A DNA stretch of 64,000 bases from an uncultured Desulfobacterales bacterium (GTDB lineage Bacteria > Desulfobacterota > Desulfobacteria > Desulfobacterales > JAFDDL01), in contig CAYOXD010000002.1 of assembly GCA_964407825.1 (NCBI GenBank), positions 3,248 through 67,247 of the forward strand. Direction: 5' to 3'. Below are positions 2 through 60,823 of the stretch, in pieces. The notes beneath the pieces are model-generated. The model ran no database searches, was not told the origin of the DNA, and worked only from the letters and a program-made list of their open reading frames with translations. Position 1 is the first letter of the stretch; each line of letters starts with the position of its first letter. A program made the translations under genes and the position numbers.

Positions 2-148
2 TCCCTGGGGGGCTCGTTTCTCGTCCTGGTCGATGATCTGGGCAGATGGGCGACGGGTTCGGAGATCCCCTTGGGAATCCTGACGGCTCTCATCGGCGGT
101 CCTTTTTTTGTCTATCTCCTGAAAAAGACAAAGGGAGGCGGCTGGTAG
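2..148 (+). CDS. C-terminal fragment of a FecCD/BtuC-family ABC importer permease (5' end outside window)
   Basis: Frame 2 reads ...SEIPLGILTALIGGPFFVYLLKKTKGGGW*. This tail is typical of FecCD-type permeases. The stop at 146-148 lies 2 nt before the ATPase start. Confidence 0.7.
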   Translation, partial: SLGGSFLVLVDDLGRWATGSEIPLGILTALIGGPFFVYLLKKTKGGGW

Positions 149-150
149 CC

Positions 151-978
151 ATGTCACTCATCCGCGTGGAGGGGGTCGGTTTCTCCTATGGCCAGAAGCC
201 GATTCTGAAGGATATCGGTTTTCGGGTGGAAAAGGCTGAGGTACTTTGCCTGTTGGGGCCGAACGGGTGCGGCAAGACGACGCTTCTGGACTGTATCCTG
301 GGGCTCCATCCACTGCAATCGGGCCGTATTACCCTGAACGGGGTGTCCACGGCCGGGATCCGGCCTGCCACCCTGGCCAAGTCCGTCTCCTACGTGCCCC
401 AGGGCCATGAACGGACCTTTCCCTACAGGGTGATGGAAATCGTCATGATGGGGCGGGCGGCGTATACGGGGTTATTCAGCGGGCCCAAACTGGCGGATGA
501 AAAGATAGCGGAGGAGTCCCTGGCCTTGGTCGGCATCGGACATCTCAGGGACAGGCCCTATACGCGGTTGAGCGGCGGGGAAGGGCAGCTGGTCCTGATT
601 GCAAGGGCCCTGGCGCAGCGGACGCCGGTGGTGGTCATGGATGAGCCCACGGCGCACCTGGATTTTAAAAATGAGCTGCTGGTACTGGAGACCATCGGCA
701 GGCTCGTGAGGGAACGGAACATCGCCGTGGTGATGGCGACCCATTTTCCCAATCATGCTTTTTTTTTTGAAAACAGCGGTGTGCGAACACGGGTGGCCAT
801 GTTGAAGGAAGCCCGCATCCTCGAAATCGGAGAACCTGGCAGGGTCCTGCGCGAGGATCTGATCGAGACCCTCTACGGGATAGAGGCGTCCATCGTCTCC
901 CTGGACGGGGGCGCCAGCACATCGAGAAAGCAGGTAATTCCCATCCGGACGGTTCCGCCCGCGTCGGAAGGGGCTTAG
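151..978 (+). CDS. ABC transporter ATP-binding protein, iron-siderophore/cobalamin (FecE/BtuD-like) type
   Basis: Walker A GPNGCGKTT, signature LSGGEGQ and Walker B VVVMDEPTAHLD are present. The internal Met at 151 (MSLIRVEG...) is preferred over the track start at 46, which would overlap the permease. Confidence 0.85.
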   Translation: MSLIRVEGVGFSYGQKPILKDIGFRVEKAEVLCLLGPNGCGKTTLLDCILGLHPLQSGRITLNGVSTAGIRPATLAKSVSYVPQGHERTFPYRVMEIVMMGRAAYTGLFSGPKLADEKIAEESLALVGIGHLRDRPYTRLSGGEGQLVLIARALAQRTPVVVMDEPTAHLDFKNELLVLETIGRLVRERNIAVVMATHFPNHAFFFENSGVRTRVAMLKEARILEIGEPGRVLREDLIETLYGIEASIVSLDGGASTSRKQVIPIRTVPPASEGA

Positions 979-1111
979 ATTTTCGGTGAACGGCCTTCCA
1001 CGGCACCTCACCGAATCGCTGGAGCTTAGGCGGCAGCTCTCGGACATCCGGAGTGAAAGAGAGACGGACGTGATAACATCAGGATCAAAGCAAGGGCGGG
1101 GAGGTGTTCCC

Positions 1112-2218
1112 ATGGCGGTTGACCCGTGGCACTGGAATATAAAGCCCCTCTTACTCCTGCTGGCGGGGATCACCCTGCTCTGCCTGCCCCTTCAACGGGC
1201 GCAAGGGGAGCCCCTCCAGCAGAGGGCCGGTCGCGCCTATATCCGTGTGGTGGACAGTGTGGGCCGTACGGTCGAGGTGCCCGTCGGAGCCAAGCGCATC
1301 GCCTGCCTCTACCTGTTTACCGGTCATGTGGTAACCATGCTGGGCAAGGGGCGCGACATCGTTGCGGTCTCCTACGGTCTAAAACGCGTCTCACTCCTGA
1401 ACCGGATCTGCCCCTCCCTTTTGAAAGCCTCCGTCCCCAAGACCCAGGGGGCGATCAATATGGAAGAGCTGCTGGAGGCAAAGCCGGACATTGTTTTCCT
1501 TCCCGGTGAGACGGCCGGAAACCCCCATGACATGGCCAAGCTGGCACAATTCAAGATCCCCGCCATCATCGTGGATTTCAACAGTATCCGTACCCAGCAG
1601 CAGGCCATCCGGATCATCGCAAGGGCCATCGGTGCCAGGGCACGGGCACAGCGTTTCATCGACTATTACAACGCGTGCATCCGCCGGGTCCGGGAGGTTA
1701 CCGAGAAAATCCCCAGGGACCGGCTGCCCCGGGTGTTCTATTCCGTGAACGAGCCGCTTCGCACCACCCTCGTCCATGGCCTCACCGCCGACTGGCTCCG
1801 GCTGACCGGATGTATCGATGTGGCACGGACCCGGGGGCAGCACCTCTTGGATGGAAAAAATTACACGAGCCTGGAGCAGATACTCCTGTGGAACCCGGAT
1901 GTGATCCTCACCAACGAGCCCTCCGCCGCGGAAACGATTCGCCATGACAGCCAGTGGTCCACCCTGCGCCCCGTGCGGGAGGGAAGGGTCTATTGCATGC
2001 CCATCGGCATTTCCAGATGGGGCCATCCGGGATCCATGGAAACGCCTCTGGCCATCCTCTGGGCTGCCAAGAAATTGCATCCGAAACTCTTTTCCCGTAT
2101 CGACATGCGGGCCGAAACCAGATATTTTTACAGCACTTTTTTCAATTACCACCTCTCGGATCATGAGATCGAAAAGATCCTGAGCGCCAGAACAAAGAGA
2201 AAACCGAGGAAATCCTGA
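1112..2218 (+). CDS. Periplasmic substrate-binding protein of the iron-siderophore/cobalamin ABC importer class
   Basis: Starting at the internal Met gives a signal peptide (MAVDPWHWNIKPLLLLLAGITLLCLPLQRAQG). The sequence has an overall FhuD/BtuF-like character (PDIVFL, NPDVIL, WGHPGS) and follows the permease and ATPase genes. Confidence 0.75.
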   Translation: MAVDPWHWNIKPLLLLLAGITLLCLPLQRAQGEPLQQRAGRAYIRVVDSVGRTVEVPVGAKRIACLYLFTGHVVTMLGKGRDIVAVSYGLKRVSLLNRICPSLLKASVPKTQGAINMEELLEAKPDIVFLPGETAGNPHDMAKLAQFKIPAIIVDFNSIRTQQQAIRIIARAIGARARAQRFIDYYNACIRRVREVTEKIPRDRLPRVFYSVNEPLRTTLVHGLTADWLRLTGCIDVARTRGQHLLDGKNYTSLEQILLWNPDVILTNEPSAAETIRHDSQWSTLRPVREGRVYCMPIGISRWGHPGSMETPLAILWAAKKLHPKLFSRIDMRAETRYFYSTFFNYHLSDHEIEKILSARTKRKPRKS

Positions 2219-2268: not shown

Positions 2269-3015
2269 ATGAAATGCTTAGTGGCAATCGATGATACCGA
2301 TAATTTGGAAAGTGTCGGGACGGGGGAATTGGCATCCCTGCTGTCTGAAAGCGTTTCCGCCAGGGGTTGGGGCCAGGCGGGGCATGTGACCCGGCATCAG
2401 ATGCTGGTTCACCCGGACATTCCCTATACCTCCCACAACAGCGCCATGTGTTTCCCGGCAGAGATGGAAAGGGACTGTATGGAGGCGTTCGTGGCCTATG
2501 CCATGGACTTTCTGCGGCAGGAGAGCGCCTCGGGGTCGGATCCGGGGTTGTGCGTCGTCGCCATCGAACGGCTTGCCGAGCCGGCGGCGCTGATCACTTT
2601 CGGCCGGGAGGCCAAGCGCAAGGTCCTTCAAAAATCCGATGCCTACGAGCTCGCCAGGCGACTGGACGTCCATCTCTCGGAGCATGGGGGCACGGGGCAA
2701 GGGGTCATCGGCGCCCTGGCCGCCGTAGGGCTCCGGATGACCGGAAATGACGGGCGGTTCAAGGGGCACGTCAAGATCGAGGCTGCCGATAGGATTGCCA
2801 CCCCGGCTGAAATAAAGCACCAGAGCCACGTGCGAGTGGTTCAAAGCGCCGATGGGCAGGTGCTGGCGGAGAGCGACAGGATACGACTGGGCAACAAGGT
2901 GAAAGCCGTCCTGCTCGATGGCAGATCCACCCTGCTGGTCTGCAGGACGGACACGAACGTAAATGACACGGTGCGGTGGGAAACCTGCAGCAAACAGTTC
3001 CTGCGCAGCTATTGA
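2269..3015 (+). CDS. Conserved hypothetical protein; N-terminal MKCLVAIDDTDN motif reminiscent of the TiaS-type kinase (TCKD) domain
   Basis: A 248-aa ORF with no competing frame. The IDDTD motif near the N-terminus is recalled from archaeal TiaS. The rest of the protein is not recognisable. Confidence 0.45.
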   Translation: MKCLVAIDDTDNLESVGTGELASLLSESVSARGWGQAGHVTRHQMLVHPDIPYTSHNSAMCFPAEMERDCMEAFVAYAMDFLRQESASGSDPGLCVVAIERLAEPAALITFGREAKRKVLQKSDAYELARRLDVHLSEHGGTGQGVIGALAAVGLRMTGNDGRFKGHVKIEAADRIATPAEIKHQSHVRVVQSADGQVLAESDRIRLGNKVKAVLLDGRSTLLVCRTDTNVNDTVRWETCSKQFLRSY

Positions 3016-3298: not shown

Positions 3299-4522
3299 AT
3301 GAAAGCCCGGGACTTTATCGATCTTGAAAACGAGTATGGCGCCCACAACTACCACCCCCTCGATGTGATTCTCAAAAGGGGGAAGGGCGTGTGGGTCTGG
3401 GATATCGAAGGTAAAAAATACCTCGATTGCCTGGCTGCCTATGGTGCCGTGAACCAGGGGCACTGCCACCCCGAGATCCTCAAGGCCTTGAAGGCCCAGG
3501 CCGAAAGGCTGACCATCACCTCCCGGGCCTTTCGAAACGACCAGCTGGGACCCTTTTACAGGGAACTGTGCCAGCTGACCCGTTCCCACAAGGCCTTGCC
3601 CATGAACAGCGGGGCCGAGGCCGTGGAGACCGTCATCAAGGCCGTAAGAAAATGGGGTTATCAGGTCAAGGGCATCCCGCCGGACCGGGCGGAGATCATC
3701 GTCTGCACCAACAATTTTCACGGCCGGACCATCGGCATCGTTGGGTTTTCAACGGATCCGGCGGCCCGTAACGGATTTGGCCCCTTCGCACCGGGCTTCA
3801 AGGTGATTCCCTTCGGAGATGCCGAGGCCTTGGAGGCCGCCATCACCCCTGAGACAGCCGGATTTCTGGTGGAACCCATCCAGGGGGAGGCAGGCGTCAT
3901 CCTTCCTCCGGCGGGATACTTCAAGGCCGTTCGGGAAATCTGCACCAGCCAACGGGTGGTATTGATTTTGGACGAAATCCAAACCGGCCTGGGAAGGACG
4001 GGCACACTGCTGGCCGAGGAGCATGAGGGGATCGAATCGGATCTGACTCTGGTGGGCAAAGCCCTCTCCGGCGGTTTTTACCCCGTATCGGCCGTCCTTT
4101 CCAACCGGGAGGTCCTGGAGGTGCTGCAACCCGGGGAGCACGGCAGCACCTTCGGCGGAAACCCCCTGGCCTGCGCCGTGGCGCGGGCCGCCATGCGTGT
4201 TTTGAAGGAAGAGAACCTGGCTGCCAACGCCGCCGCCATGGGCATCCGCTTCCTCGACGGTCTGAGGCGGATACGCAGTCCCCATGTCAAGGAGGTGCGT
4301 GGCCGGGGGCTCATGATGGCCATGGAACTGGTGCCGGAGGCCGGCGGCGCCCGTCGATTCTGCGTCCACCTGGCAGAAAGGGGCATCCTGTGCAAGGAAA
4401 GCCATGACACCACCATCCGGTTCGCCCCGCCCCTCGTCATCAAAGAGGCGGAGGTGGACTGGGCCCTGGAGCGAATCGAGGCAGTCATGGCCTCCCCCCT
4501 TCGTTCTCGTCAGAAACAATAA
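3299..4522 (+). CDS. rocD: Ornithine--oxo-acid aminotransferase (class III PLP aminotransferase)
   Basis: The N-terminus [14 protein letters not shown]...[18 protein letters not shown] and the [11 protein letters not shown] and [10 protein letters not shown] motifs are typical of RocD/OAT. Confidence 0.8.
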
Positions 4523-4691: not shown

Positions 4692-4726
4692 GTTTAAAGC
4701 CCGAACTGCTTTAAACCCTTTATAAT
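4692..4726 (+). promoter_or_regulatory. Putative operator plus -10 box upstream of the radical SAM gene
   Basis: A perfect 9-bp inverted repeat, GTTTAAAGC (4692-4700) / GCTTTAAAC (4708-4716), is followed by TATAAT at 4721-4726. This lies about 58 nt upstream of the ATG at 4784. Confidence 0.35.
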
Positions 4727-4783
4727 GGGCGACCGTTGTAGTAGGTATAGGTCCCGCTACTCCAACGTCACCATGGAGAAAAA

Positions 4784-6082
4784 ATGAAAATTCTGCTGGT
4801 CAACCCGCCCAACTGCGGCAGATCCATACCTGAGGAGCGGTATGGGATCGATACGATCAAGATGATTTTTCGGGGGGAACCCCTGGCCCTGGAGGTGATA
4901 GCCGGAAACCTGGAGGGCCACGAGGTGCGCATCTGTGACCTCAAGGCCGAGCCGGAGGAGAGCCTCGATCGCTGTCTGGTCCAATGGAAACCGGACGTGG
5001 TGGGCCTTACGGCCATGACCTGCGAGGCCAACACCCTGCTCGCTCTGGCCCGGGACATCAAGGAGCGCTCGGGCGCGATGATTGTGGCCGGCGGCTCCCA
5101 TGTCTCCTGCGACCCGGATTTTTTCAACAATGAGAGCATTGACTATCTGGTGGTGGGCATCGGAAAACTCAGCTTCAGGCTGTTGATTGACGCCCTGGCC
5201 CTAGGCGCGCCGGGGCAGGGCATCGACGGTGTGGTCAAGACCGATCCGTCCGGCCCCTTGCCCCTGATCCCTCGGGCCTTTTCCTCTGCGGACCTGGTGG
5301 ATGCGGCCGCCCCGCGCTATGACCTGGTGGAAAAGAACCGGGACCGGTACGTCATGAGCGGGGTGGGCGGAAAGATGGGATTTGTGGTCTCGGCCTATGG
5401 CTGCACCCACCGGTGTTCCTTTTGCGCCGTTCCCAACATGACCGGGGGGCGGTACCTGTCCCACAGCGTGGCGGCCGTGATCCGGGACATGCGGCTGCTG
5501 GCGTCCTTGCCCCTGATCCGCCTGGTGGACGCCAACACCTTCGGCAATATCCGTCTGGCGGAGGAATTGGCCGAGGCCCTGGCCGCATCGGGCCTGGAGC
5601 AGCGGATCGTAGCCGATGTGCGCGCGGATACGGTGGTGAGCCATCCCGATCTTTTCAGACGATGGAAGGCGGCCGGACTGGCCACGGTGGTCATCGGCTT
5701 CGAGGAGGTGAGCGACCGCCGGCTCGAGGAATATCACAAGAGATCGCGGGTGGAGACCCATGTGGCCGCCCTGGCCATACTGAAGGACCTGGGCATCCGG
5801 GTGATCGGAGATTTCATCGTGTCCCCGGACTACGGGGACGAGGACTTCGAGGCCCTTGTGGATTTCGTGAAATCAAACCCCATCGACCTGCCGCTGCCGG
5901 CCGTTTTAACCCCCATCCCCGGAACACCCCTTTACAAACAGGTCCGAGACAGGATAACGATACACGATTTGGACTATTACACGTTTACCAACGCCGTGCT
6001 CCCCACCCGGATGGCGGAGCGCCGCTTTTACGAAACCTATGCAGGAATCCTGAAGGATTTTACCGGACACATAAGGCATTAA
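4784..6082 (+). CDS. B12-binding-domain radical SAM protein (class B rSAM)
   Basis: The N-terminus has a Rossmann-like B12-binding pattern (KILLVNPP, VVGLTAMT, IVAGGSH). This is followed by the CxxxCxxC cluster AYGCTHRCSFCAV. Confidence 0.85.
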   Translation: MKILLVNPPNCGRSIPEERYGIDTIKMIFRGEPLALEVIAGNLEGHEVRICDLKAEPEESLDRCLVQWKPDVVGLTAMTCEANTLLALARDIKERSGAMIVAGGSHVSCDPDFFNNESIDYLVVGIGKLSFRLLIDALALGAPGQGIDGVVKTDPSGPLPLIPRAFSSADLVDAAAPRYDLVEKNRDRYVMSGVGGKMGFVVSAYGCTHRCSFCAVPNMTGGRYLSHSVAAVIRDMRLLASLPLIRLVDANTFGNIRLAEELAEALAASGLEQRIVADVRADTVVSHPDLFRRWKAAGLATVVIGFEEVSDRRLEEYHKRSRVETHVAALAILKDLGIRVIGDFIVSPDYGDEDFEALVDFVKSNPIDLPLPAVLTPIPGTPLYKQVRDRITIHDLDYYTFTNAVLPTRMAERRFYETYAGILKDFTGHIRH

Positions 6083-6089
6083 ACGCAAT

Positions 6090-7244
6090 ATGGATGTTTT
6101 TATAAACGACATGGGCACCTTTCTTCCCAACCTGCCGGTTGGAAACGAGGCGATCGAGAATGTGCTGGGAAGCATCAACAACAACAATGGCTCATCAAAG
6201 ATCAAACGAATCGTTCTGAAGAGCAATCAGATCAAGACCCGTTACTATGCCCTGGACTCGGAGACCGGGCACCTGACCCACACCAACGCCCAGTTGACGG
6301 CCCGGGCCATCGAGGGCCTCGCCCCTTACGAGGGGTTTTCGGTTCGGGACATCCAGTGCCTGGCCTGCGGCACCTCCTCACCGGATATCCTGTTTCCGGG
6401 CCACGCCCTCATGGTTTGCGGGGAACTGGGACTGCCGCCCTGCGAGGTGGTCACGACTTCGGGCATTTGCCTGGCAGGGATGGGCGCCTTCAAATACGCC
6501 TGGATGAACGTGCTCAGCGGCGCGTCGGAAAATGCCGTGGCCACGGGTTCGGAACTGGCCTCCTCGCTTCTTCGCGCCCCGTTCATGAAGCCCCTTCACG
6601 CGGAGAGCGCCGGCGAAGCCCTGGAGCGGGAGCCGATCCGGGCCTTCGACGCGGATTTTCTGCGCTGGATGCTCTCGGACGGCGCCGGCGCCGCCTTCCT
6701 TTCCAACCGGCCCAACCAGGGGAAGATCAGCCTCCGGGTCGACTGGATCGATACCCTAACCTACAGCGGTGAGCTTCCCACCTGCATGTACGGCGGCGGG
6801 GTCCAGCAGCCGGACGGGGGCATCGTCGGCTGGCGGGACGGGGAGCGGATTACGCCGGCCCAAAGGGCCTACCTCTTTGCCATACGCCAGGACATCCGGC
6901 TCCTTGATCAAAATATCGTGAACACCATGGGACGGGCTCTGTCCGCCACCATCTCGAAACACGGCCTTTCACCGGAAAACATCGACTGGTTTCTGCCCCA
7001 CTACTCCTCGGCCTATTTTCGGCCCCGGTTTTACGAGGAGATGAAGCGGATCGGCTTTGAAATCCCCGAAGAAAAATGGTTCACCAACCTCTCGGAGAAG
7101 GGCAATACGGGAAGCGCCGCCATCTTCATCATCATCGAGGAGCTGTTTGCCTCGGGCCGCCTGGAGCCGGGCCAGAAGCTCTTGTGCTTCATTCCAGAAA
7201 GCGGCCGGTTTTCCCACTGCTTCATGATGCTGACGGTGGTATAG
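6090..7244 (+). CDS. KASIII (FabH)-like thiolase-fold condensing enzyme
   Basis: A Cys-His-Asn triad context is present: TSGICLAGMGAF, FLPHYSSAYF, SEKGNTGSAAIF. At 384 aa it is longer than canonical FabH because of an internal insertion. Confidence 0.8.
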   Translation: MDVFINDMGTFLPNLPVGNEAIENVLGSINNNNGSSKIKRIVLKSNQIKTRYYALDSETGHLTHTNAQLTARAIEGLAPYEGFSVRDIQCLACGTSSPDILFPGHALMVCGELGLPPCEVVTTSGICLAGMGAFKYAWMNVLSGASENAVATGSELASSLLRAPFMKPLHAESAGEALEREPIRAFDADFLRWMLSDGAGAAFLSNRPNQGKISLRVDWIDTLTYSGELPTCMYGGGVQQPDGGIVGWRDGERITPAQRAYLFAIRQDIRLLDQNIVNTMGRALSATISKHGLSPENIDWFLPHYSSAYFRPRFYEEMKRIGFEIPEEKWFTNLSEKGNTGSAAIFIIIEELFASGRLEPGQKLLCFIPESGRFSHCFMMLTVV

Positions 7245-7266
7245 AGGGAATTGCGAGCCGGTTGGA

Positions 7267-7524
7267 TCAGGCCGCGGCCTTCCGCTCTTCGATGAAGGCC
7301 GCCAGGCTGTTGATGGATTCAAGGGCGATCCGCCCTTCGTTCATATTTTTGATCTCGATACCGAAGTGCCGATTCACCTGGTAGACCATCTCCACGGAAT
7401 CGATGGAGTCAAGACCGAATTTGTCCCCGAAAAGGAGATCGTCATCCAGAATGTCATCCGGCTGGATATCGGGGAGCTGGAGGCCCTCCACGATCATTAC
7501 CTTCAACTTATGCTTCAATGTCAT
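7267..7524 (-). CDS. Acyl carrier protein (phosphopantetheine attachment site)
   Basis: Starting at the internal Met gives an 85-aa protein, MTLKHKLKVMIVEGL...FGLDSIDSVEMV, with a DSxxS-type Ser motif. It is convergent with the KASIII-like gene. Confidence 0.8.
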   Translation of the reverse strand: MTLKHKLKVMIVEGLQLPDIQPDDILDDDLLFGDKFGLDSIDSVEMVYQVNRHFGIEIKNMNEGRIALESINSLAAFIEERKAAA

Positions 7525-7828
7525 ATGTTTAACAGTCCGATTTCGAAGGGTTTTATAAACGTTACTGCCTCTGGGCCCCCCTCGGCATGACCCTGCGAAA
7601 GAACAGTCTCGTAATATACTGATATTCCCATTCAAGTTCAATGAAAAATCCACGGCTGTTCTTGGTGGATGGCATTGAGCACGCGGGCCCAGAGGCAATT
7701 GACAGCCTTCGGCTTTTGGGACAAAATATCTTTCCTGATCAATGGCAAGGCGGAAAGGATGGGAACGGCTCAGGTGGCCCCAGGGGGTTCCGCCTGAGCT
7801 CTGTAGCGAAGGGGGATAGGGAGAGGCA

Positions 7829-8593
7829 GTGGATCAAAGCGGTGCTCGGCAATCTTCCCTTGTGGTGGAAAACTTGACGAAAACTTACGCCGAAGCGAAG
7901 TCGCCCGCCATTTCCAACCTGACCTTTTCCATGGAACCGGGGGAAATTTTCGGCCTTCTAGGCCCCAACGGTGCAGGGAAAACCACGGCCATCTCCATTC
8001 TAAGCGCCGTATTGGGTGCCGATGAGGGCCGGGTAGTCATCTGCGGGGTGGACCTTTTCAAAAAGCCCCGGCAGGCAAAACGATGTTTCGGGCTAATTCC
8101 CCAGGACATCGCTCTCTACGGCCGGATGAGCGCCCGTGAGAACCTGGCCTATTTCGGCCGGCTTCAGGGGCTTGGCGGGAAGCACCTCAGGCAGCGCATT
8201 GACGAGAGCCTCGAGATGGTGGGGCTTGCAGGAAAGTCCGACCAGCCGGTAAAGACCTTCTCCGGCGGTATGAAACGTCGGTGCAATCTGGCAGTGGGGA
8301 TGCTGCATCAACCCCGTCTGCTGTTTCTGGATGAACCCACGGTGGGCATCGACGCCCAATCGCGCAACCTGATTCTGGAAAAGCTTTCCCTCCTCAGGGA
8401 GCAGGGTGTCAGCATGATCTACACGACCCACTACATGGAGGAGGCGGAATCCCTCTGCACCCGGGTCGGCATTTTGGACCTGGGCCGGATGATCGTCCAG
8501 GGCGCCCCCCGGGACCTGATTATGGCCCACCCCGGATGCGGGACGCTGGGGGAGCTTTTCCTTGAACTGACCGGGAAACACCTTCGGGACTGA
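7829..8593 (+). CDS. ABC-2 type transporter ATP-binding protein
   Basis: Walker A GPNGAGKTT, signature FSGGMKRR and Walker B LLFLDEPTVGID are present. A GTG start is preceded by GGGAGAGG. Confidence 0.85.
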   Translation: MDQSGARQSSLVVENLTKTYAEAKSPAISNLTFSMEPGEIFGLLGPNGAGKTTAISILSAVLGADEGRVVICGVDLFKKPRQAKRCFGLIPQDIALYGRMSARENLAYFGRLQGLGGKHLRQRIDESLEMVGLAGKSDQPVKTFSGGMKRRCNLAVGMLHQPRLLFLDEPTVGIDAQSRNLILEKLSLLREQGVSMIYTTHYMEEAESLCTRVGILDLGRMIVQGAPRDLIMAHPGCGTLGELFLELTGKHLRD

Positions 8594-8594
8594 T

Positions 8595-9923
8595 ATGAGG
8601 GCATTGGCGGCCGCCATATTAAAGGAACTTCTTCTGCTCAGGCGGGATCGGACCGGCCTGCTGGTGCTGTTTTTGATGCCGGCGGTGCTGGTGGTGGTCA
8701 TCTCCCTGGTGCAGAACAACGTATTGAAGACCACCGGCGAGACCGGCATCCAGTTGCTCCTCATCGACAACGACGGCAAGGCATTGGGCCGCATCATCGA
8801 ATCGCGCATCCGGAAAACCGGTGCCATCGAAATCGTACGGACCGTCAACGGAAAGCCCATCGATGAGACATCCGCCAGGGCGCTTCTGTCAAAGGGGCGA
8901 TACGAGGTCTGCATGGTGATTCCCCGAGGCTTTACCGATGCGGTGACCCGCCGGGCGGGGGAACAGATAAGGGCGTCCCTGGCCATCGATACCGAAGCCG
9001 GGGCGGCAGCGCAGAAGCCGCCCCATGTGGTCCTTTACTTCGATCCCATGGTGCGTGGGGCTTTTCGATCCGCCATGGAAAATGCCTTGGAGCGGGTCCT
9101 TTTGACCATGGAACTTCGCATCAAGGCCCGGGTGATCACCCGCCTGCTCAAAGAAAAAATAGGCGCCCCCCCCCTGTCGTCCTTCGGTCCCGAGCCATCG
9201 ATGCCATCTGGAGACGGGGTCTCCGGCATATCCGATGCCTGGGGGAAACAGCGCCTCATGGATGTCCAAAGCCTGAACGCCGCACCGGGGCAGGCGCTCA
9301 AGCTTCCCACGGCGGTTCAGCAAAATGTGCCGGCATGGGCACTTTTCGGGATGTTCTTTATCGTGATGCCGCTGGGGGGCGCCATCATCCGGGAAAGGCG
9401 GGACGGCACCTATGGTCGTCTCCTGACCATGCCCGTTTCACCGGCCGTCCTGCTTCTGGGGAAGGTGCTGGCCTATGTCCTGGTGTGCCTGGCGCAATTT
9501 TTCCTCATCCTGCTGGTGGGAAGGTTTGTGCTGCCCCTGCTCGGCACATCGGTGCTCCACATGGGCTCGGCTCCCCTGGCGGTGCTGGCGGTGGTGGTTT
9601 GCGCGGCCCTGAGCGCCTGCGCCTATGCCATCCTGCTGGGCACGGTGTGCACCAGCTATGAGCAGGTGTCCATGTTCGGTCCCGTGTCCGTGGTCATCGC
9701 GGCCGCCCTCGGGGGGATCATGGTTCCCGTCTACGTCATGCCGAGGGTGATGCAGGAGATCAGTCGCTACTCCCCCCTCGCCTGGGGGCTAAATGCCCTC
9801 ACCGACCTTTTCGCCCGGGGGGCGGGGATAGGCCAAGTGTTGCCCGATATTTTCTATCTCCTTGGCTTTGCGTCCGCCGCCATGATCGCCTGCTGGATGA
9901 TCTCCCTTTTCTCAAAACGCTGA
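8595..9923 (+). CDS. ABC-2 family transporter permease
   Basis: It starts 2 nt after the ATPase stop. It has one N-terminal TM segment, a long extracytoplasmic loop and a C-terminal cluster of hydrophobic helices. Confidence 0.75.
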   Translation: MRALAAAILKELLLLRRDRTGLLVLFLMPAVLVVVISLVQNNVLKTTGETGIQLLLIDNDGKALGRIIESRIRKTGAIEIVRTVNGKPIDETSARALLSKGRYEVCMVIPRGFTDAVTRRAGEQIRASLAIDTEAGAAAQKPPHVVLYFDPMVRGAFRSAMENALERVLLTMELRIKARVITRLLKEKIGAPPLSSFGPEPSMPSGDGVSGISDAWGKQRLMDVQSLNAAPGQALKLPTAVQQNVPAWALFGMFFIVMPLGGAIIRERRDGTYGRLLTMPVSPAVLLLGKVLAYVLVCLAQFFLILLVGRFVLPLLGTSVLHMGSAPLAVLAVVVCAALSACAYAILLGTVCTSYEQVSMFGPVSVVIAAALGGIMVPVYVMPRVMQEISRYSPLAWGLNALTDLFARGAGIGQVLPDIFYLLGFASAAMIACWMISLFSKR

Positions 9924-13285: not shown

Positions 13286-14336
13286 TCAATCTGTTTCCTT
13301 GTCTTTGCCTTCCTCCAGTTGCTTTATCACCCGGTCGAAGTCACTCTCAAATAGGCGGTCCTGAACGATGCGGTATTTTTCAAATTCACTCTCGGCATGC
13401 GCCCTGGCCAGCTTGGCCGCAGCCTTACCGGAATCCTGCAGGATCTCACGGTCGTCGAATTCCAGAAACATATCCAGGCGCTTGGCCCAGTCTTCCATGG
13501 TCATCGGGATTTTCCGTTTGGCCCGTTCTTCAGCCAAATCCAGATAGGCGTTAACAATTCGTCCTAACGATTCCAGCTCGTCCTTGACCAGATAGTTTTT
13601 AGCCACCGATACATTCGGTTTTCACAATCTTGCCGCCCGGAGCCTTTTCCCATGTGGTCAGCCCCATATTGGTTTTAGTACTGTCGGCTCGCTTCATAAT
13701 CAGCTCGGCAGCGGTGTTGCCGTGGACGGCAAAATGCAGTTTGTTCTGGACCTTTGCAAAGAACGCTTTGGTTGTCGGAGCGTCCTTGTTGTAGTCGACG
13801 CTGGTGGCATAAATGTCGGTGATTTTCTGGTAAAAGCGGCGCTCGCTGAGCCGTATTTCCCGGATCTCTTCAAGTAGGCGCTCGAAATAGTCCTCACCAA
13901 GAAAGGACCCGTTTTCCATGCGCTTTTTATCCAGCACATAGCCCTTGATGGCGAACTCGCGCAAGACCTGGGTGGCCCACTGCCGGAACTGGGTGGCCCG
14001 CACCGAGTTGACCCGGTAACCTAAGGAGATGATTGCATCCAGATTGTAGTGGTTGGTGGCGTAGGACTTGCCATCGGAGGCAGTTATCCGGAATTTCCGG
14101 ATAACTGAATCCTCATCCAATTCGCCGCTGGTAAAGATGTTTTTAAGGTGCTCACTGACTGTGCGCACGTCCACCGCAAACAGCGCGGCCATCAACTTCT
14201 GAGACAGCCAGATGGTCTCACTCTCATACCGGGCCTCGATGCTCTGTTCACCCGCCTGCCCGGTAAAGATCAGAAACTCGGCTGTACTATTGCGTATCAG
14301 CTGTTTTCCTTTGTCCTTATCCTGTTTCATGATCAA
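13286..14336 (-). pseudogene. RhuM-family gene split by a frameshift (245-aa and 106-aa ORFs)
   Basis: The N-terminal ORF (FRITASDGKSYATNHYNLDAIISLGYRVNSVRATQFRQWAT) and the C-terminal ORF (AKNYLVKDELESLGRIVNAYLD...FESDFDR) are contiguous parts of one RhuM-type protein. The frames switch within GTGAAAACCGAAT (13613-13625, minus strand). Confidence 0.7.
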
Positions 14337-14948: not shown

Positions 14949-15301
14949 TGGTGGAGGCGCCGGGAGTTGAACCCGGGTCCGGAAATATTCCGCGCAGGCT
15001 TCTACATACTTATCCCGGGTTTTGGATTTCGCTCATCGGGTCTCTCCCGGGCGGGATGCCCGATTCGCTAGCCTGCCGAAAGATCCCCGATTCCTTGGCA
15101 GGCCTTGGGAATCGGTTATCCCACTAGTCGACGCCCTTTGCCAGGTGCGCGGGAAAAACCTGGCAGGACGGTAGCCTTAAGCGGCTACAGCGTAAGCATA
15201 ATCGTCTGCGATTATATTTAATTCCAACCGATTTTACGAGCCGGCAGGAACTCGGTATGCAACCTGAACTTCTTTATCCCCGTCGAAGCCGTTTCGCCCC
15301 C
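14949..15301 (-). ncRNA. ssrA: tmRNA (transfer-messenger RNA)
   Basis: The 5' end GGGGGCGAAACGGCUUCGACGGGG pairs with the 3' end CGCCUCCACCA, including the G3:U wobble. The T-arm is CCGGGUUCAACUCCCGG. The internal tag ORF GCA GAC GAT TAT GCT TAC GCT GTA GCC GCT TAA (15177-15209) encodes ADDYAYAVAA. smpB is adjacent. Confidence 0.92.
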
Positions 15302-15400: not shown

Positions 15401-15859
15401 CTACCAGTTCTTCTTTTCCCGGTCCTGCTCGCGTTTCTCGTCCCGGCGGCGGATGGTTTCGCGCTTGTCGTACAGGCGCTTTCCCTTGGCCACGGCAATG
15501 CTGAGTTTGACCCTGCCGCCCTTGAAATAGAGTCTAAGGGGAACGAGGGTCAGGCCCTTTTCATTGATTTTCCCATAGAGCTTTTTGATCTGCTCCTTGT
15601 GCAGGAGCAGCTTCCTGGGGCGCAACGGGTCATGGTTGTCGTAATGGGTGAAGGTGTAAGGGCTGATGTGCATCTGGTAGACATAGATTTCACCGCCCTT
15701 GACCCTCGCATAGGCGTCCTTGAGGTTGGCCCGACCCTGTCTGAGGGATTTGACCTCGCTGCCAAGCAGGACGAGGCCGGCCTCGAGCTCCTCCTCGATG
15801 AAATAATCGTGTCTCGCCTTCCTGTTCTCTGCAATCCGTTTGATAGACTCTTCTTTCAA
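15401..15859 (-). CDS. smpB: SsrA-binding protein SmpB
   Basis: The sequence [32 protein letters not shown] and the basic C-terminal tail are diagnostic. The gene is adjacent to ssrA. Confidence 0.9.
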
Positions 15860-58438: not shown

Positions 58439-60370
58439 TTACTTGGACATTTCCAGCCTCACGTACTGCTCGTAATAGGCGGCGCCAGAGCCCATATCCG
58501 TGCAGACGGCGTCAATGAGTTGATTGACCCCACCCCCCAGTCCCATCCAGTCCCCCCGGCGGTAGAGCACCACCTGGGGATGGAGATCCGCCAACGACAC
58601 CGGTTGTACCCGCAGTCGGCCAAGGGGGGAAACGAGCCAGACCGGACCGTCATCGTCGATTTCCCGCCATGCCGGGCATTCAGGCGACAACCATACAGTG
58701 GGAAACTTCGGATGGCTCTCGGGCAGGAGTTGTGAGTGCATGGCATCCCGACGCACAAGGCTCAGCAGCCGCAGGGGGAACCCCGGCGGCGGGGCCGGTT
58801 CCTCATGCAGCACCAGGGGAAGGGCGTAGCGTCCATCGGCATGGTCGAAAACCAGTCCCTCGTAGGCAACCGCCGGCCGGCTGGCCCGGACCCATCCCCT
58901 TTGCCGCAACCGGTTCAGATCCGTGTCCAATACAGGTGCCTCCAGGGCCCGGGCAAGGCAGCTTTCGGCATCCGGCAGCATCACGGGCGGGTCCAGCCTT
59001 CGGCCGATTTCCGATACGATCCAGTGATCGCCCCTCGCCTCGGGCGGTGGATCCACCACCTTCGCCGCATACAGGACGAATTCATGGAGATAGGAACCGA
59101 CGATGTCCTCCTGTTCCAGCATCAGGGTGCAGGGGAGCACCAGGTCCGCTGCCCGGGCGGTATCGGTCATGAAGGCATCCACCACCACCTTGAAGTCAAC
59201 CGACTGGAAAAATTGTCGCACACCGCGGCTGTCCGGCGCCTGGTTGACGATGTTGGTGCCGTTGACCCAAATCATTCGGACAGGCGGTCGGGTCCTGTCA
59301 GCCCCGTCCTGCGCTATCATCGGCTTTCGGAGGGTGTGCTGCGAACCGCTTGCCCCGGGATCCAGCCAGGAGAGGTCCAGATTCCGGAAGGCATGGTGAT
59401 GAAAGTAGCTGCCGCCGCCGGGCCGTCCCACGTTACCGGAACAGAAGGCAAGGGCATTGATAAAACGCACATTTTCGCCGCCGTAGCGATACCGTTGCAG
59501 GCCGGCGCCCACCAGTGTGGCTGTGGGACCGGGGGCCGCATAGTACTCGGAGAGGGTTTCGATATCGCTGGACGACACCCCGGATAAGTCGCAAAGCCGA
59601 TCCTCGCCGTATGCGCCGATGGTCTGGACAAAGCTCTTCACGTGCCGGGCCCTTTCGAGCAAGGATGCCGGAACCTGTCCAGCGGAAAACAGCCGTTTGG
59701 TTACCGCGGCCGCCAGAAAGCGATCCGTACCCGGCCGGATGCGGATCGTATCGTCGGAAAGCGACCGATTGAAATCCCCCCCGGGGGAGATGCTCAGCAC
59801 CCGGGCGCCCCGGCGGCGCGCCCGGCGTATCAGCAGGGCCGTATGGACCGAACTCCGGAGGGGGTCCTTTCCCCAGTTGACGATTCTGTCGCTCTCCAAC
59901 AGAAGCTGGATATCGGAATTGCACCGGGAGCCGAAATCCTTGATATAGGCCATGTAGCCGGCCGCATCGCACAGGGATCCATGGGTACGGGAGCTGCCAA
60001 GTTTTCGAAAAAAGAGGGTAGGGGTCTGCCGCAGGACCCCCTTGCCGCCTTGGCCATGGAGGTGCAAAATGGCGCCCGGGGTTTTGCGAAGTGCCTGTAT
60101 CTTCTCCGCGCAGAGGGCCAGGGCCTCCTCCCAGCAGATAGCCTTCCAATTTTTTCCCCTGCGGATCATGGGGGTTTGGATCCGCGCGGGACTCTGCAGC
60201 CGTTGCAGATGGCTATTGATTTTGTTACAGGCGAATCCGGCGGTTATCGGATGATCCGGCGCTCCCTTCAGCCGCGGATTTCCAGATCTGTCCAACTCCA
60301 CCAGCAGGGCGCAAGAATCCGGACAATCCATGGTACAGGCCGTGTAAGATGCATTCTGGTGCCCATCCAT
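58439..60370 (-). CDS. Molybdopterin (bis-MGD) oxidoreductase family protein, apparently cytoplasmic
   Basis: The N-terminal Fe-S motif is CTMDCPDSC...GFACNK. MopB-like core motifs (THGSLCDAAG, ISPGGD) and a C-terminal molybdopterin-binding barrel are present. No twin-arginine signal is seen. The internal Met at 60370 is preceded by GAGGGAG. Confidence 0.75.
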   Translation of the reverse strand: MDGHQNASYTACTMDCPDSCALLVELDRSGNPRLKGAPDHPITAGFACNKINSHLQRLQSPARIQTPMIRRGKNWKAICWEEALALCAEKIQALRKTPGAILHLHGQGGKGVLRQTPTLFFRKLGSSRTHGSLCDAAGYMAYIKDFGSRCNSDIQLLLESDRIVNWGKDPLRSSVHTALLIRRARRRGARVLSISPGGDFNRSLSDDTIRIRPGTDRFLAAAVTKRLFSAGQVPASLLERARHVKSFVQTIGAYGEDRLCDLSGVSSSDIETLSEYYAAPGPTATLVGAGLQRYRYGGENVRFINALAFCSGNVGRPGGGSYFHHHAFRNLDLSWLDPGASGSQHTLRKPMIAQDGADRTRPPVRMIWVNGTNIVNQAPDSRGVRQFFQSVDFKVVVDAFMTDTARAADLVLPCTLMLEQEDIVGSYLHEFVLYAAKVVDPPPEARGDHWIVSEIGRRLDPPVMLPDAESCLARALEAPVLDTDLNRLRQRGWVRASRPAVAYEGLVFDHADGRYALPLVLHEEPAPPPGFPLRLLSLVRRDAMHSQLLPESHPKFPTVWLSPECPAWREIDDDGPVWLVSPLGRLRVQPVSLADLHPQVVLYRRGDWMGLGGGVNQLIDAVCTDMGSGAAYYEQYVRLEMSK

Positions 60371-60556
60371 CAAGGACGCTCCCTCTCTCTGTGTCGGGCT
60401 TTTGGGATCCACTCGCGTTTCGGCCACAAAGCCGCCCTCAGCTCCATGCCCTCTACCTATAGAAATACGATGTTCGACGGGTATTTGCAAAATGTATTGA
60501 AAATCCTCCCTGGAAAATATAAAAAAGTCTTTTTGCATAGGAAGAGGAAAGGGGAG

Positions 60557-60823
60557 ATGGAGAAACTACTGGATGAGTTGAAGCACAAGGTCGTCGAAAC
60601 CCTCAATCTGGGCGATATCAAACCCGAGGACATCGACGGGGACGAACAGCTGGTGGGAGGAAGGCTGGGAATCGATTCCATCGATATCCTGGAACTGGTG
60701 ATGATGATTGAAAAGACCTATGGGCTCAAAATCGACAATAAGGAAATGGGCGCGAAGGTTTTTGCCAATATGAGAGCCATGGCCGGATATATTCAGGAAA
60801 ATGTTCCGGAGCTTTCCCCTTGA
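60557..60823 (+). CDS. Acyl carrier protein
   Basis: An 88-aa protein with LGIDSIDILELV as the phosphopantetheine Ser motif. The ATG is preceded by GAGGAAAGGGGAG, and the stop overlaps the start of the KS gene. Confidence 0.8.
   Translation: MEKLLDELKHKVVETLNLGDIKPEDIDGDEQLVGGRLGIDSIDILELVMMIEKTYGLKIDNKEMGAKVFANMRAMAGYIQENVPELSP

Follow-up and report, generated by a model that had tools for sequence, protein, structure and literature searches.

A B12-domain radical SAM gene in the darA position of dialkylresorcinol-type gene clusters of anaerobic Desulfobacterota

The five-gene unit and its condensing enzyme

The stretch of DNA analysed here, referred to as the window, comprises 64,000 nucleotides of an uncultured Desulfobacterales bacterium (contig CAYOXD010000002.1, positions 3,248 to 67,247, GenBank assembly GCA_964407825.1). 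Between 4.7 and 9.9 kb it carries five intact genes, encoding a radical S-adenosylmethionine (SAM) enzyme with a B12-binding-type domain, a condensing enzyme, an acyl carrier protein (ACP) and the ATPase and permease of an ABC-2 exporter (Table 1), all of them at or a few bases from where an earlier note on this DNA had placed them. Our subject is the radical SAM gene, which occupies the position that the aromatase gene darA has in dialkylresorcinol (DAR) clusters. The gene of the condensing enzyme starts 7 nt past the stop codon of the radical SAM gene, the ACP gene is convergent with it, the two stop codons being 22 nt apart, and a 304-nt spacer lies between the ACP gene and the divergently transcribed ATPase gene. 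The proteins of the unit exceeded the Pfam cut-offs for B12-binding (57.5 bits against 32.1), Radical_SAM (62 bits against 29.5), ACP_syn_III_C, PP-binding (28.6 bits against 20.8), ABC_tran and ABC2_membrane_3. The CxxxCxxC motif of the radical SAM enzyme is made up of C207, C211 and C214 ('GCTHRCSFCAV') and the three cysteines are invariant in 26 homologues. The class-B radical SAM enzyme with this motif, the convergent dedicated ACP, in which a modifiable serine is present, and the divergent ABC-2 pair that the earlier note had described were thus confirmed, and its view of the unit as a dedicated ACP-linked pathway with an exporter, and not as bulk fatty-acid synthesis, holds.

Table 1. 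Features of the window, with dar gene equivalents named after PMC3949708 (KS, ketosynthase; CLF, chain-length factor)
Feature	Position	Strand	Remarks
Radical SAM enzyme, 432 aa	4784-6082	+	N-terminal B12-binding-type domain and Radical_SAM (Pfam)
StlD/DarB-family beta-ketosynthase, 384 aa	6090-7244	+	NF005293 (NCBIfam); triad C127/H304/N339
Dedicated ACP, 85 aa	7267-7524	-	DarC equivalent; PP-binding (Pfam); Ser40 in GLDSID
ABC transporter ATPase, DrrA-like	7829-8593	+	DarF of Azoarcus; Pfam and NCBIfam
ABC-2 family permease, 442 aa	8595-9923	+	DarI of Azoarcus; ABC2_membrane_3 (Pfam), 121.5 bits
Second ACP	60545-60823	+	PP-binding; 63% identity to ACP92 inside the radical SAM-DarB cluster of the related locus L001
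KS-CLF fusion, 727 aa	60820-63003	+	ketoacyl-synt, Ketoacyl-synt_C and Ketoacyl-synt_2 (Pfam)
Perfect 9-bp inverted repeat	4692-4716	+	GTTTAAAGC-N7-GCTTTAAAC; with the TATAAT box about 60 nt upstream of the radical SAM start
TATAAT box	4721-4726	+	follows the inverted repeat
Ornithine aminotransferase gene	3299-4522		directly before the radical SAM gene
ABC ATPase and Peripla_BP_2 binding protein	46-2218		iron-siderophore/cobalamin uptake type; 2.5 kb upstream of the radical SAM gene
248-aa protein	2269-3015
Lower-GC stretch (0.51-0.53)	10.6-14.9 kb		between the DAR unit and the tmRNA gene
RhuM, split into two open reading frames	13599-14336 and 13286-13606		within the lower-GC stretch
tmRNA gene	14949-15301	-	tag ADDYAYAVAA; adjoins smpB
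smpB	15401-15859	-
Molybdopterin oxidoreductase	58439-60538		opposite strand; precedes the ACP/KS-CLF pair

The condensing enzyme was matched over its full length (residues 3-384) by NF005293, the NCBIfam model of the StlD/DarB family, with 524.5 bits against a cut-off of 450, whereas with TIGR00747, the model of FabH (beta-ketoacyl-ACP synthase III, KAS III), it scored 62.6 bits against a cut-off of 292. With NF053539 ('dialkylresorcinol biosynthesis protein DarB') it scored 443.5 bits and stayed under the cut-off of 550, but this model is narrow and a DarA-linked Burkholderia DarB fails too, with 501 bits. The triad C127/H304/N339 is invariant over 79 DarB sequences of both cluster types compared below, those linked to DarA included. 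The Cys/His/Asn triad reported earlier for this protein therefore stands but the KAS III label that went with it does not, and by its sequence the protein is a StlD/DarB-family head-to-head condensing cyclase and not a fatty-acid primer. It has been shown that DarB, StlD and BrtD make a carboxy-cyclohexanedione by head-to-head condensation of a beta-ketoacyl thioester with an alpha,beta-unsaturated one, and that the aromatase DarA (StlC, BrtC) converts the carboxy-cyclohexanedione with decarboxylation to a 2,5-dialkylresorcinol (PMC6836626). When DarB acts alone the products are cyclohexanediones, and these too are known as natural products (PMC6836626). Formation of a carboxy-cyclohexanedione by the DarB of the window is predicted from its family membership.

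The radical SAM gene in the darA position

When one genome per species was scanned with the radical SAM protein, 390 matching stretches were found, and the loci of the best 80 of these were analysed. They belong to Desulfobacterales, Desulfosarcina cetonica JCM 12296 (L039), Desulfobulbaceae, Desulfopila, Desulfotalea, Geobacter, Syntrophus, Syntrophorhabdaceae and Syntrophobacteraceae. In 79 of 79 loci with downstream sequence, the window included, the radical SAM gene is followed by an adjacent darB on the same strand, with gaps of 11-429 nt that are mostly shorter than 60 nt; four loci without darB, in which the sequence ends within about 170 nt of the radical SAM gene, are outside the 79. 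This gene order is far beyond chance. The trio of radical SAM enzyme, condensing enzyme and ACP is kept as conserved neighbours; the ACP is present in 33 of 40 long loci.

DarA has no Pfam or NCBIfam model and was identified by source names and fold. The reference was DarA of a Burkholderia pseudomallei plasmid, the gene of which has a 4-nt overlap with darB; the source name of its cluster is 'dialkylrecorsinol condensing enzyme' and homologues are called 'aromatase DarA' or 'stilbene biosynthesis aromatase StlC'. A hidden Markov model made from 125 sequences, which gave 501 bits for the positive control (L083), did not match anywhere in the window and matched only once among the radical SAM loci, with 49 bits in L061; otherwise the best matches in related loci had E > 0.1. 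This DarA-like gene was rejected as a case of co-occurrence, as it is part of a xanthine-dehydrogenase operon that lies beyond an opposite-strand permease and outside the cluster. In the reverse test, 80 metagenome loci were retrieved by an alignment of DarBs with one of the DarA type at its head, and it was found that darB is preceded by darA in 67 of them, by this radical SAM gene in one (L135), by neither in three (L141, L151 and L163) and by both in none, the remaining nine being too short to tell. A 434-aa open reading frame upstream of darB in L141 was considered as a divergent radical SAM protein and discarded, as it encodes a membrane permease without the Cys motif. Among all scorable loci, 81 of the radical SAM type and 71 anchored on DarB, there is none with DarA and the radical SAM enzyme in one cluster.

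In a neighbour-joining tree of 156 DarBs the 75 that are linked to the radical SAM enzyme, with that of the window among them, form a single exclusive clade. It stands beside the DarA-linked DarBs, at 41-58% identity, and is nearer to these than are the partner-less sequences of Prevotella, Nostoc and Pseudoalteromonas. The divergence of the radical SAM proteins follows that of the DarBs (Mantel r = 0.91, with 0 of 999 permutations as high), as would be expected if the two were inherited together, but simple vertical descent would give the same correlation. In a Syntrophus metagenome-assembled genome (MAG; L074, 11316-15925) there are two DarB paralogues, 52% and 54% identical to DarB of the window and about 2.3 kb apart, and only the first is directly behind the radical SAM gene. 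A darB without any aromatase partner is a third configuration, seen in L141, L151, L163 and a Prevotella plasmid (L084, 7355-9125), where a TetR gene and then darB follow each other with neither darA nor the radical SAM gene upstream. The 'DarA-less' DarBs of cyanobacteria, which are more distant from the characterised DarBs, have been pointed out as an open question (PMC6836626). The DarBs of the radical SAM type resemble these cyanobacterial and Bacteroidales proteins in having no canonical aromatase but, unlike them, they always have a conserved upstream partner and group by the DarA-linked DarBs.

The structure model of DarA (predicted local distance difference test, pLDDT, 90) has a WrbA/PnpB-like flavodoxin fold of the flavin mononucleotide (FMN) type with long C-terminal helices, and DarA is probably an FMN oxidoreductase. 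This fold is unrelated to that of the radical SAM enzyme, and the replacement is non-homologous. The named carriers of DarA are Pseudomonas, Burkholderia, Photorhabdus and Betaproteobacteria, whereas the radical SAM enzyme is carried by obligate or predominantly anaerobic Desulfobacterota.

The genes around darB are the same in both types. The dar cluster of Azoarcus sp. BH72 comprises darA (aromatase), darB (cyclase), darD (hypothetical), darE (BtrH-like), darF (ABC ATPase), darI (ABC permease), darC (ACP), darJ (ketosynthase) and darK (PMC3949708). A DarA-type metagenome contig found through a DarA homologue (L087) has the order DarA, DarB, a 131-aa protein, a BtrH_N/DUF4872 protein, ABC ATPase, ABC-2 permease, ACP and KS. 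In L088, a Desulfobacterales locus of the radical SAM type, the ABC ATPase and ABC-2 permease genes are divergent and upstream of the radical SAM gene, which is followed by darB, and convergent with darB are, in the order of transcription, the genes of a 140-aa protein, the BtrH-like protein, ACP, KS and CLF. Its gene set is that of L087 with the radical SAM enzyme in the place of DarA, and the identities between the two loci are 46% for the 131/140-aa protein, 48% for the BtrH-like protein, 41% for the ABC ATPase, 30% for the permease and 49% for DarB. The ATPase and permease of the window are also 41% and 30% identical, respectively, to those of L087, and its ACP is 61% identical to that of L088, where the ACP gene precedes the KS/CLF pair. 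Proteins of a further locus, L064, scored 478 bits with DarH_acyl and 146 bits with DarG_fam. When accessory genes were counted in 40 radical SAM-type loci of at least 18 kb and in 21 DarA-type metagenome loci of at least 15 kb, their frequencies were similar: the ABC ATPase was found in 36 and 18 loci, respectively, the ABC-2 permease in 37 and 17, the ACP in 33 and 18, KS in 32 and 16, and the BtrH-like protein and the small protein (131-140 aa) each in 34 and 19. The ACP and the ABC-2 pair are thus ordinary members of DAR clusters, and the exporter, which had been taken for a separate neighbour of the module, is therefore part of it and of one known cluster type. What the window carries is a reduced DAR-type biosynthetic cluster; the DAR pathway itself is known, and the radical SAM variant is new and widespread.

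Like the darABC genes of Pseudomonas chlororaphis/aurantiaca and their counterparts in Photorhabdus (StlCDE) and Synechocystis (BrtC/BrtD), the unit has a DarB with the same triad, an adjacent dedicated ACP and an operon in which another gene directly precedes darB, but in the window this gene encodes a 432-aa B12-domain radical SAM protein and in darABC the flavodoxin-like aromatase DarA/StlC of about 305-318 aa. With the extended DAR cluster of Azoarcus BH72 (arcuflavin) and the flexirubin type it shares the ABC ATPase, ABC-2 permease and ACP that accompany DarB. Relatives of the window also have the BtrH-like acyltransferase, the protein of about 135 aa and the KS/CLF pair, and a few of them an aromatic ammonia lyase, as in flexirubin initiation. 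Unlike these clusters, it has the radical SAM enzyme for DarA, the window is without the BtrH-like protein, the small protein and an adjacent KS, and the full aryl-polyene gene set is not present.

Candidate functions of the radical SAM enzyme

The best curated match of the radical SAM enzyme was HpnR, the hopanoid C-3 methylase (TIGR04367), with 171.8 bits (E 2e-50) against a cut-off of 650. It was followed by the anaerobic cyclase BchE (TIGR02026; 96.1 bits, cut-off 481), HpnJ (69 bits, cut-off 578) and the 'lipid biosynthesis B12-binding/radical SAM protein' of ladderane clusters (TIGR04072; 51.9 bits, cut-off 360). With the HpnR/BchE/HpnJ sector, to which its profile similarity is greatest and in which BchE is the O2-independent counterpart of an aerobic enzyme, it shares an N-terminal B12-binding-type Rossmann domain followed by a radical SAM barrel with CxxxCxxC. 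Its scores, however, are far under the cut-offs, its DarB context is unrelated to hopanoids or bacteriochlorophyll, and a score gap sets the family apart: among 1.84 billion cluster representatives, full-length members scored at least 390 bits at identities of at least 45%, and the next proteins at most 245 bits at 37% or less. The proteins just under the gap are likewise unassigned HpnR/BchE/HpnJ-like enzymes and therefore no function can be transferred by phylogeny. More than 1400 homologues are in the protein collection, the top ones from MAGs of Desulfobacterales and Desulfococcaceae. On these profile scores the enzyme represents a distinct, uncharacterised family outside all curated NCBIfam families. 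The earlier note had reckoned with the chance that both enzymes fall into characterised families; this is so for the condensing enzyme (StlD/DarB), whereas the radical SAM enzyme fits none of the curated ones.

In Foldseek the AlphaFold2 (AF2) model of the enzyme (pLDDT 83.5) matched TsrM, AprD4, MgmA, OxsB and TokK with TM-scores of 0.67-0.77, the best being 0.77 for AprD4 (PDB 6fd2, a radical SAM 1,2-diol dehydratase). These matches are a mixture of methylases, a ring-contracting enzyme and a dehydratase, and therefore the fold does not decide the function. A sequence search of solved structures gave weak methylase matches (MgmA, E 6e-9). Use of cobalamin by the enzyme is putative, the class-B assignment being based on domain order, motif and fold.

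Speculation on a relation to branched, ether or membrane-spanning lipids had accompanied the first description of the unit, and would require that the enzyme carries out C-C coupling or branching on lipid tails. B12-type radical SAM enzymes do perform C-C chemistry on lipids elsewhere (PMC13459092) and there is the weak similarity to TIGR04072, but 52 bits is far under the cut-off of 360, the partner is a ring-forming condensing enzyme of the DarB family, the whole cluster is homologous to DAR clusters, and no glycerol-lipid, plasmalogen or ether-lipid genes adjoin the unit. The link thus found no support and we regard it as very improbable.

The DarA step, from carboxy-cyclohexanedione to resorcinol, is a loss of CO2 and two electrons, that is, a two-electron oxidation. 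HemN and AhbD are radical SAM enzymes that carry out oxidative decarboxylation without O2, by hydrogen abstraction beta to a carboxylate. The explanation that we favour, and to which we give about an even chance, is that the radical SAM enzyme is an O2-independent replacement of DarA that would bring about oxidative decarboxylation and aromatisation of the carboxy-cyclohexanedione. It is also about evenly balanced, in our judgement, whether the enzyme displaced the flavodoxin-like DarA once, in the ancestor of the anaerobic Desulfobacterota, and is thus an unrecognised resorcinol-forming aromatase. Displacement is the most economical explanation because the radical SAM gene is always in the position of darA, the two are never together in a cluster, the remaining gene set is identical, and the radical SAM type is found in anaerobes whereas the named carriers of DarA are aerobic or facultative. 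The pathway would begin with fatty-acid-derived beta-ketoacyl and 2-enoyl thioesters, which may be carried on the dedicated ACP and may come from fatty-acid synthesis or from the KS-CLF/ACP pair about 50 kb away. By the chemistry of the characterised DarB, StlD and BrtD, a Michael addition and a Claisen condensation would give 2,5-dialkyl-4-carboxy-cyclohexane-1,3-dione. The 5'-deoxyadenosyl radical would then take the hydrogen from ring C5, beta to the carboxylate, and the loss of CO2 and one electron would form the C4=C5 double bond and thereby the resorcinol, with no need for O2. Cobalamin might serve as electron sink or as a second hydrogen abstractor, as has been discussed for OxsB and BchE, and the ABC-2 ATPase and permease would move the amphiphilic product out of the cytoplasmic membrane. 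A precedent for a B12-radical SAM enzyme as the anoxic counterpart of an aerobic one is BchE with respect to AcsF (PMC13598231).

Several points weigh against an aromatase role. The largest gap in the argument is that DarA may not need O2, and if DarA hands its electrons to quinones there is no obvious pressure for the exchange in anaerobes. The radical SAM oxidative decarboxylases that we know of (HemN, AhbD and MftC) are without a B12 domain. The N-terminal domain of AprD4 that is equivalent to the B12-binding-type domain is not known to bind cobalamin, and the match to AprD4 shows that such domains are not always cobalamin-binding. The tree of the DarBs has short basal branches and was drawn without bootstrap, and the window is without three accessory genes that most of its relatives carry. 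Since darB genes with neither partner exist, an aromatase is not obligatory. Finally, the best curated match is a methylase (172 bits for HpnR as against 96 for BchE).

This last point belongs to the main rival explanation, that the enzyme is a cobalamin-dependent C-methyltransferase acting on the ring or the alkyl chain, be it of acyl-ACP precursors, the cyclohexanedione or the resorcinol, which we consider possible but doubtful. The products would then be methylated cyclohexanediones, or else aromatisation would be spontaneous or due to an unlinked enzyme. TsrM, MgmA and TokK among the structural neighbours are methylases, as are the majority of the known class-B radical SAM enzymes (PMC12931638), and it fits that DarB by itself makes cyclohexanediones and that darB genes without an aromatase occur. 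The HpnR score, however, is a quarter of the cut-off and the nearest outgroup families are equally unassigned. A tailoring enzyme would be expected to be optional and to occur sometimes together with DarA, but this one is present in all 79 loci of the clade and never accompanies an in-cluster DarA. Moreover, nothing else separates the two types of cluster.

In full-text searches of open-access papers none was found that connects a radical SAM partner, Geobacter or Desulfo- taxa with DarB, StlD or dialkylresorcinols, and the pairing with DarB is not mentioned in two 2026 reviews of B12-radical SAM and of lipid-modifying radical SAM enzymes. Dialkylresorcinols serve as antioxidants in membranes, as anchors of pigments (flexirubin, arcuflavin) and as signals. 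To our knowledge, all work on the DAR pathway has been done with aerobic and facultative bacteria. Here a large anaerobic lineage keeps the whole pathway with one enzyme exchanged for a radical SAM protein. There are about 390 matches in species-level genomes, and Desulfosarcina cetonica, which is in culture, is among the carriers, as are MAGs classed as Geobacter and Syntrophus. The DarB context offers a precise and cheap experimental route to the function of an orphan B12-radical SAM family, and the cluster offers a possible anaerobic route from fatty acids to aromatic rings. If the enzyme replaces DarA as we propose, this would be a new type of reaction for class-B radical SAM enzymes and a new aerobic/anaerobic pair beside AcsF/BchE and HemF/HemN, and DAR lipids or pigments would be predicted in sulfate reducers, Geobacter and syntrophs. 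Resorcinol lipids would then also be predicted in anoxic sediments, where they might be wrongly taken as a sign of aerobic or plant input. The automated labels 'hopanoid C-3 methylase', 'YgiQ' and 'beta-ketoacyl-ACP synthase III' are corrected by this analysis.

The split cluster and its surroundings in the window

The version of the cluster in the window is a reduced and split form. The unit has kept its ACP and is without an adjacent KS/CLF, and neither the BtrH_N/DUF4872 acyltransferase nor the DarG-family protein of about 135-140 aa had a tblastn match in the window. About 50 kb away, the second ACP and the KS-CLF fusion (Table 1) are probably its remote partners, and the fusion, which is 50% identical over its full length to a 725-aa KS of L001, probably builds the acyl substrates. 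The gene order in L001 is radical SAM, DarB, ABC, ABC2, aromatic ammonia lyase (TAL), ACP and ACP, followed by this KS. Homologues of the KS-CLF/ACP pair are clustered with radical SAM, DarB, ABC and ABC2 genes and an aromatic ammonia lyase in L001, L002 and L012. The module had been called an orphan with none of the usual fab genes nearby. It is true that none of fabD/G/Z/F adjoins the unit, but with the second ACP and the KS-CLF fusion in the window it is not fully orphan. Because the BtrH-like acyltransferase and the protein of about 140 aa are absent, a free DAR is a likelier end product than an esterified pigment, and the simplest product predicted from the gene content is a free dialkylresorcinol exported by the ABC-2 pair.

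It might also be that the unit in this genome is a decaying or rearranged remnant which no longer makes the normal product of the family. The BtrH-like and 140-aa protein genes, present in 34 of the 40 long loci of the radical SAM type, are missing from the whole window, the KS-CLF/ACP module is far off, and the neighbouring lower-GC stretch contains a toxin-antitoxin pair and a split RhuM beside the tmRNA gene. All five genes are, however, of full length with the Cys motif, the triad and the ACP serine intact, and the relative with an 84%-identical radical SAM protein (L089) has the same upstream neighbour. Furthermore, in Pseudomonas and Burkholderia-type loci (PMC6836626) minimal darABC sets function without these accessory genes. 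We consider decay unlikely. The toxin of the lower-GC stretch is HigB-like and is accompanied by an HTH_3/Peptidase_M78 partner, and the stretch resembles what is left of an island that had integrated at ssrA, although no integrase was seen.

The inverted repeat and TATAAT box, described earlier as belonging to the unit, are present; the repeat occurs once in the window, where shuffles predict 0 matches. When it was sought as a conserved operator, the repeat with TATAAT was found in 0 of 89 related loci, and therefore the system does not conserve it. In the window as well as in its closest relative L089 (378-1577), the two loci compared, the radical SAM gene is directly preceded by an ornithine aminotransferase gene, which in L089 ends 21 nt before the radical SAM gene with no repeat-bearing spacer. 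A promoter scan gave 2 sites with 1.6 expected by chance, that is, no excess. The repeat and TATAAT could be an operator plus a -10 box, or else a hairpin of the terminator kind that remains behind the aminotransferase gene upstream, and they are treated as a local feature of the window.

The related loci L001 (4500-19700) and L002 (3100-19500) are large contigs from a single metagenome assembly, and their clusters are near-identical and enlarged. They have as extras an ACP, two further radical SAM proteins of 382 and 332 aa, a 427-aa protein that is divergent and has a B12-binding domain, the aromatic ammonia lyase and two more ACPs, and L002 alone also has an amine-oxidase/phytoene-desaturase-like gene. 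These extras suggest that some anaerobes have an aryl branch of the flexirubin or stilbene kind. In the window no cobalamin riboswitch was found at Rfam gathering thresholds, and genes of an uptake system of the iron-siderophore/cobalamin type are located upstream of the unit (Table 1). The 248-aa protein encoded after these has a weak, sub-threshold similarity to the TCKD domain of TiaS and to methanogenesis marker protein 11, which is unusual for a bacterial genome.

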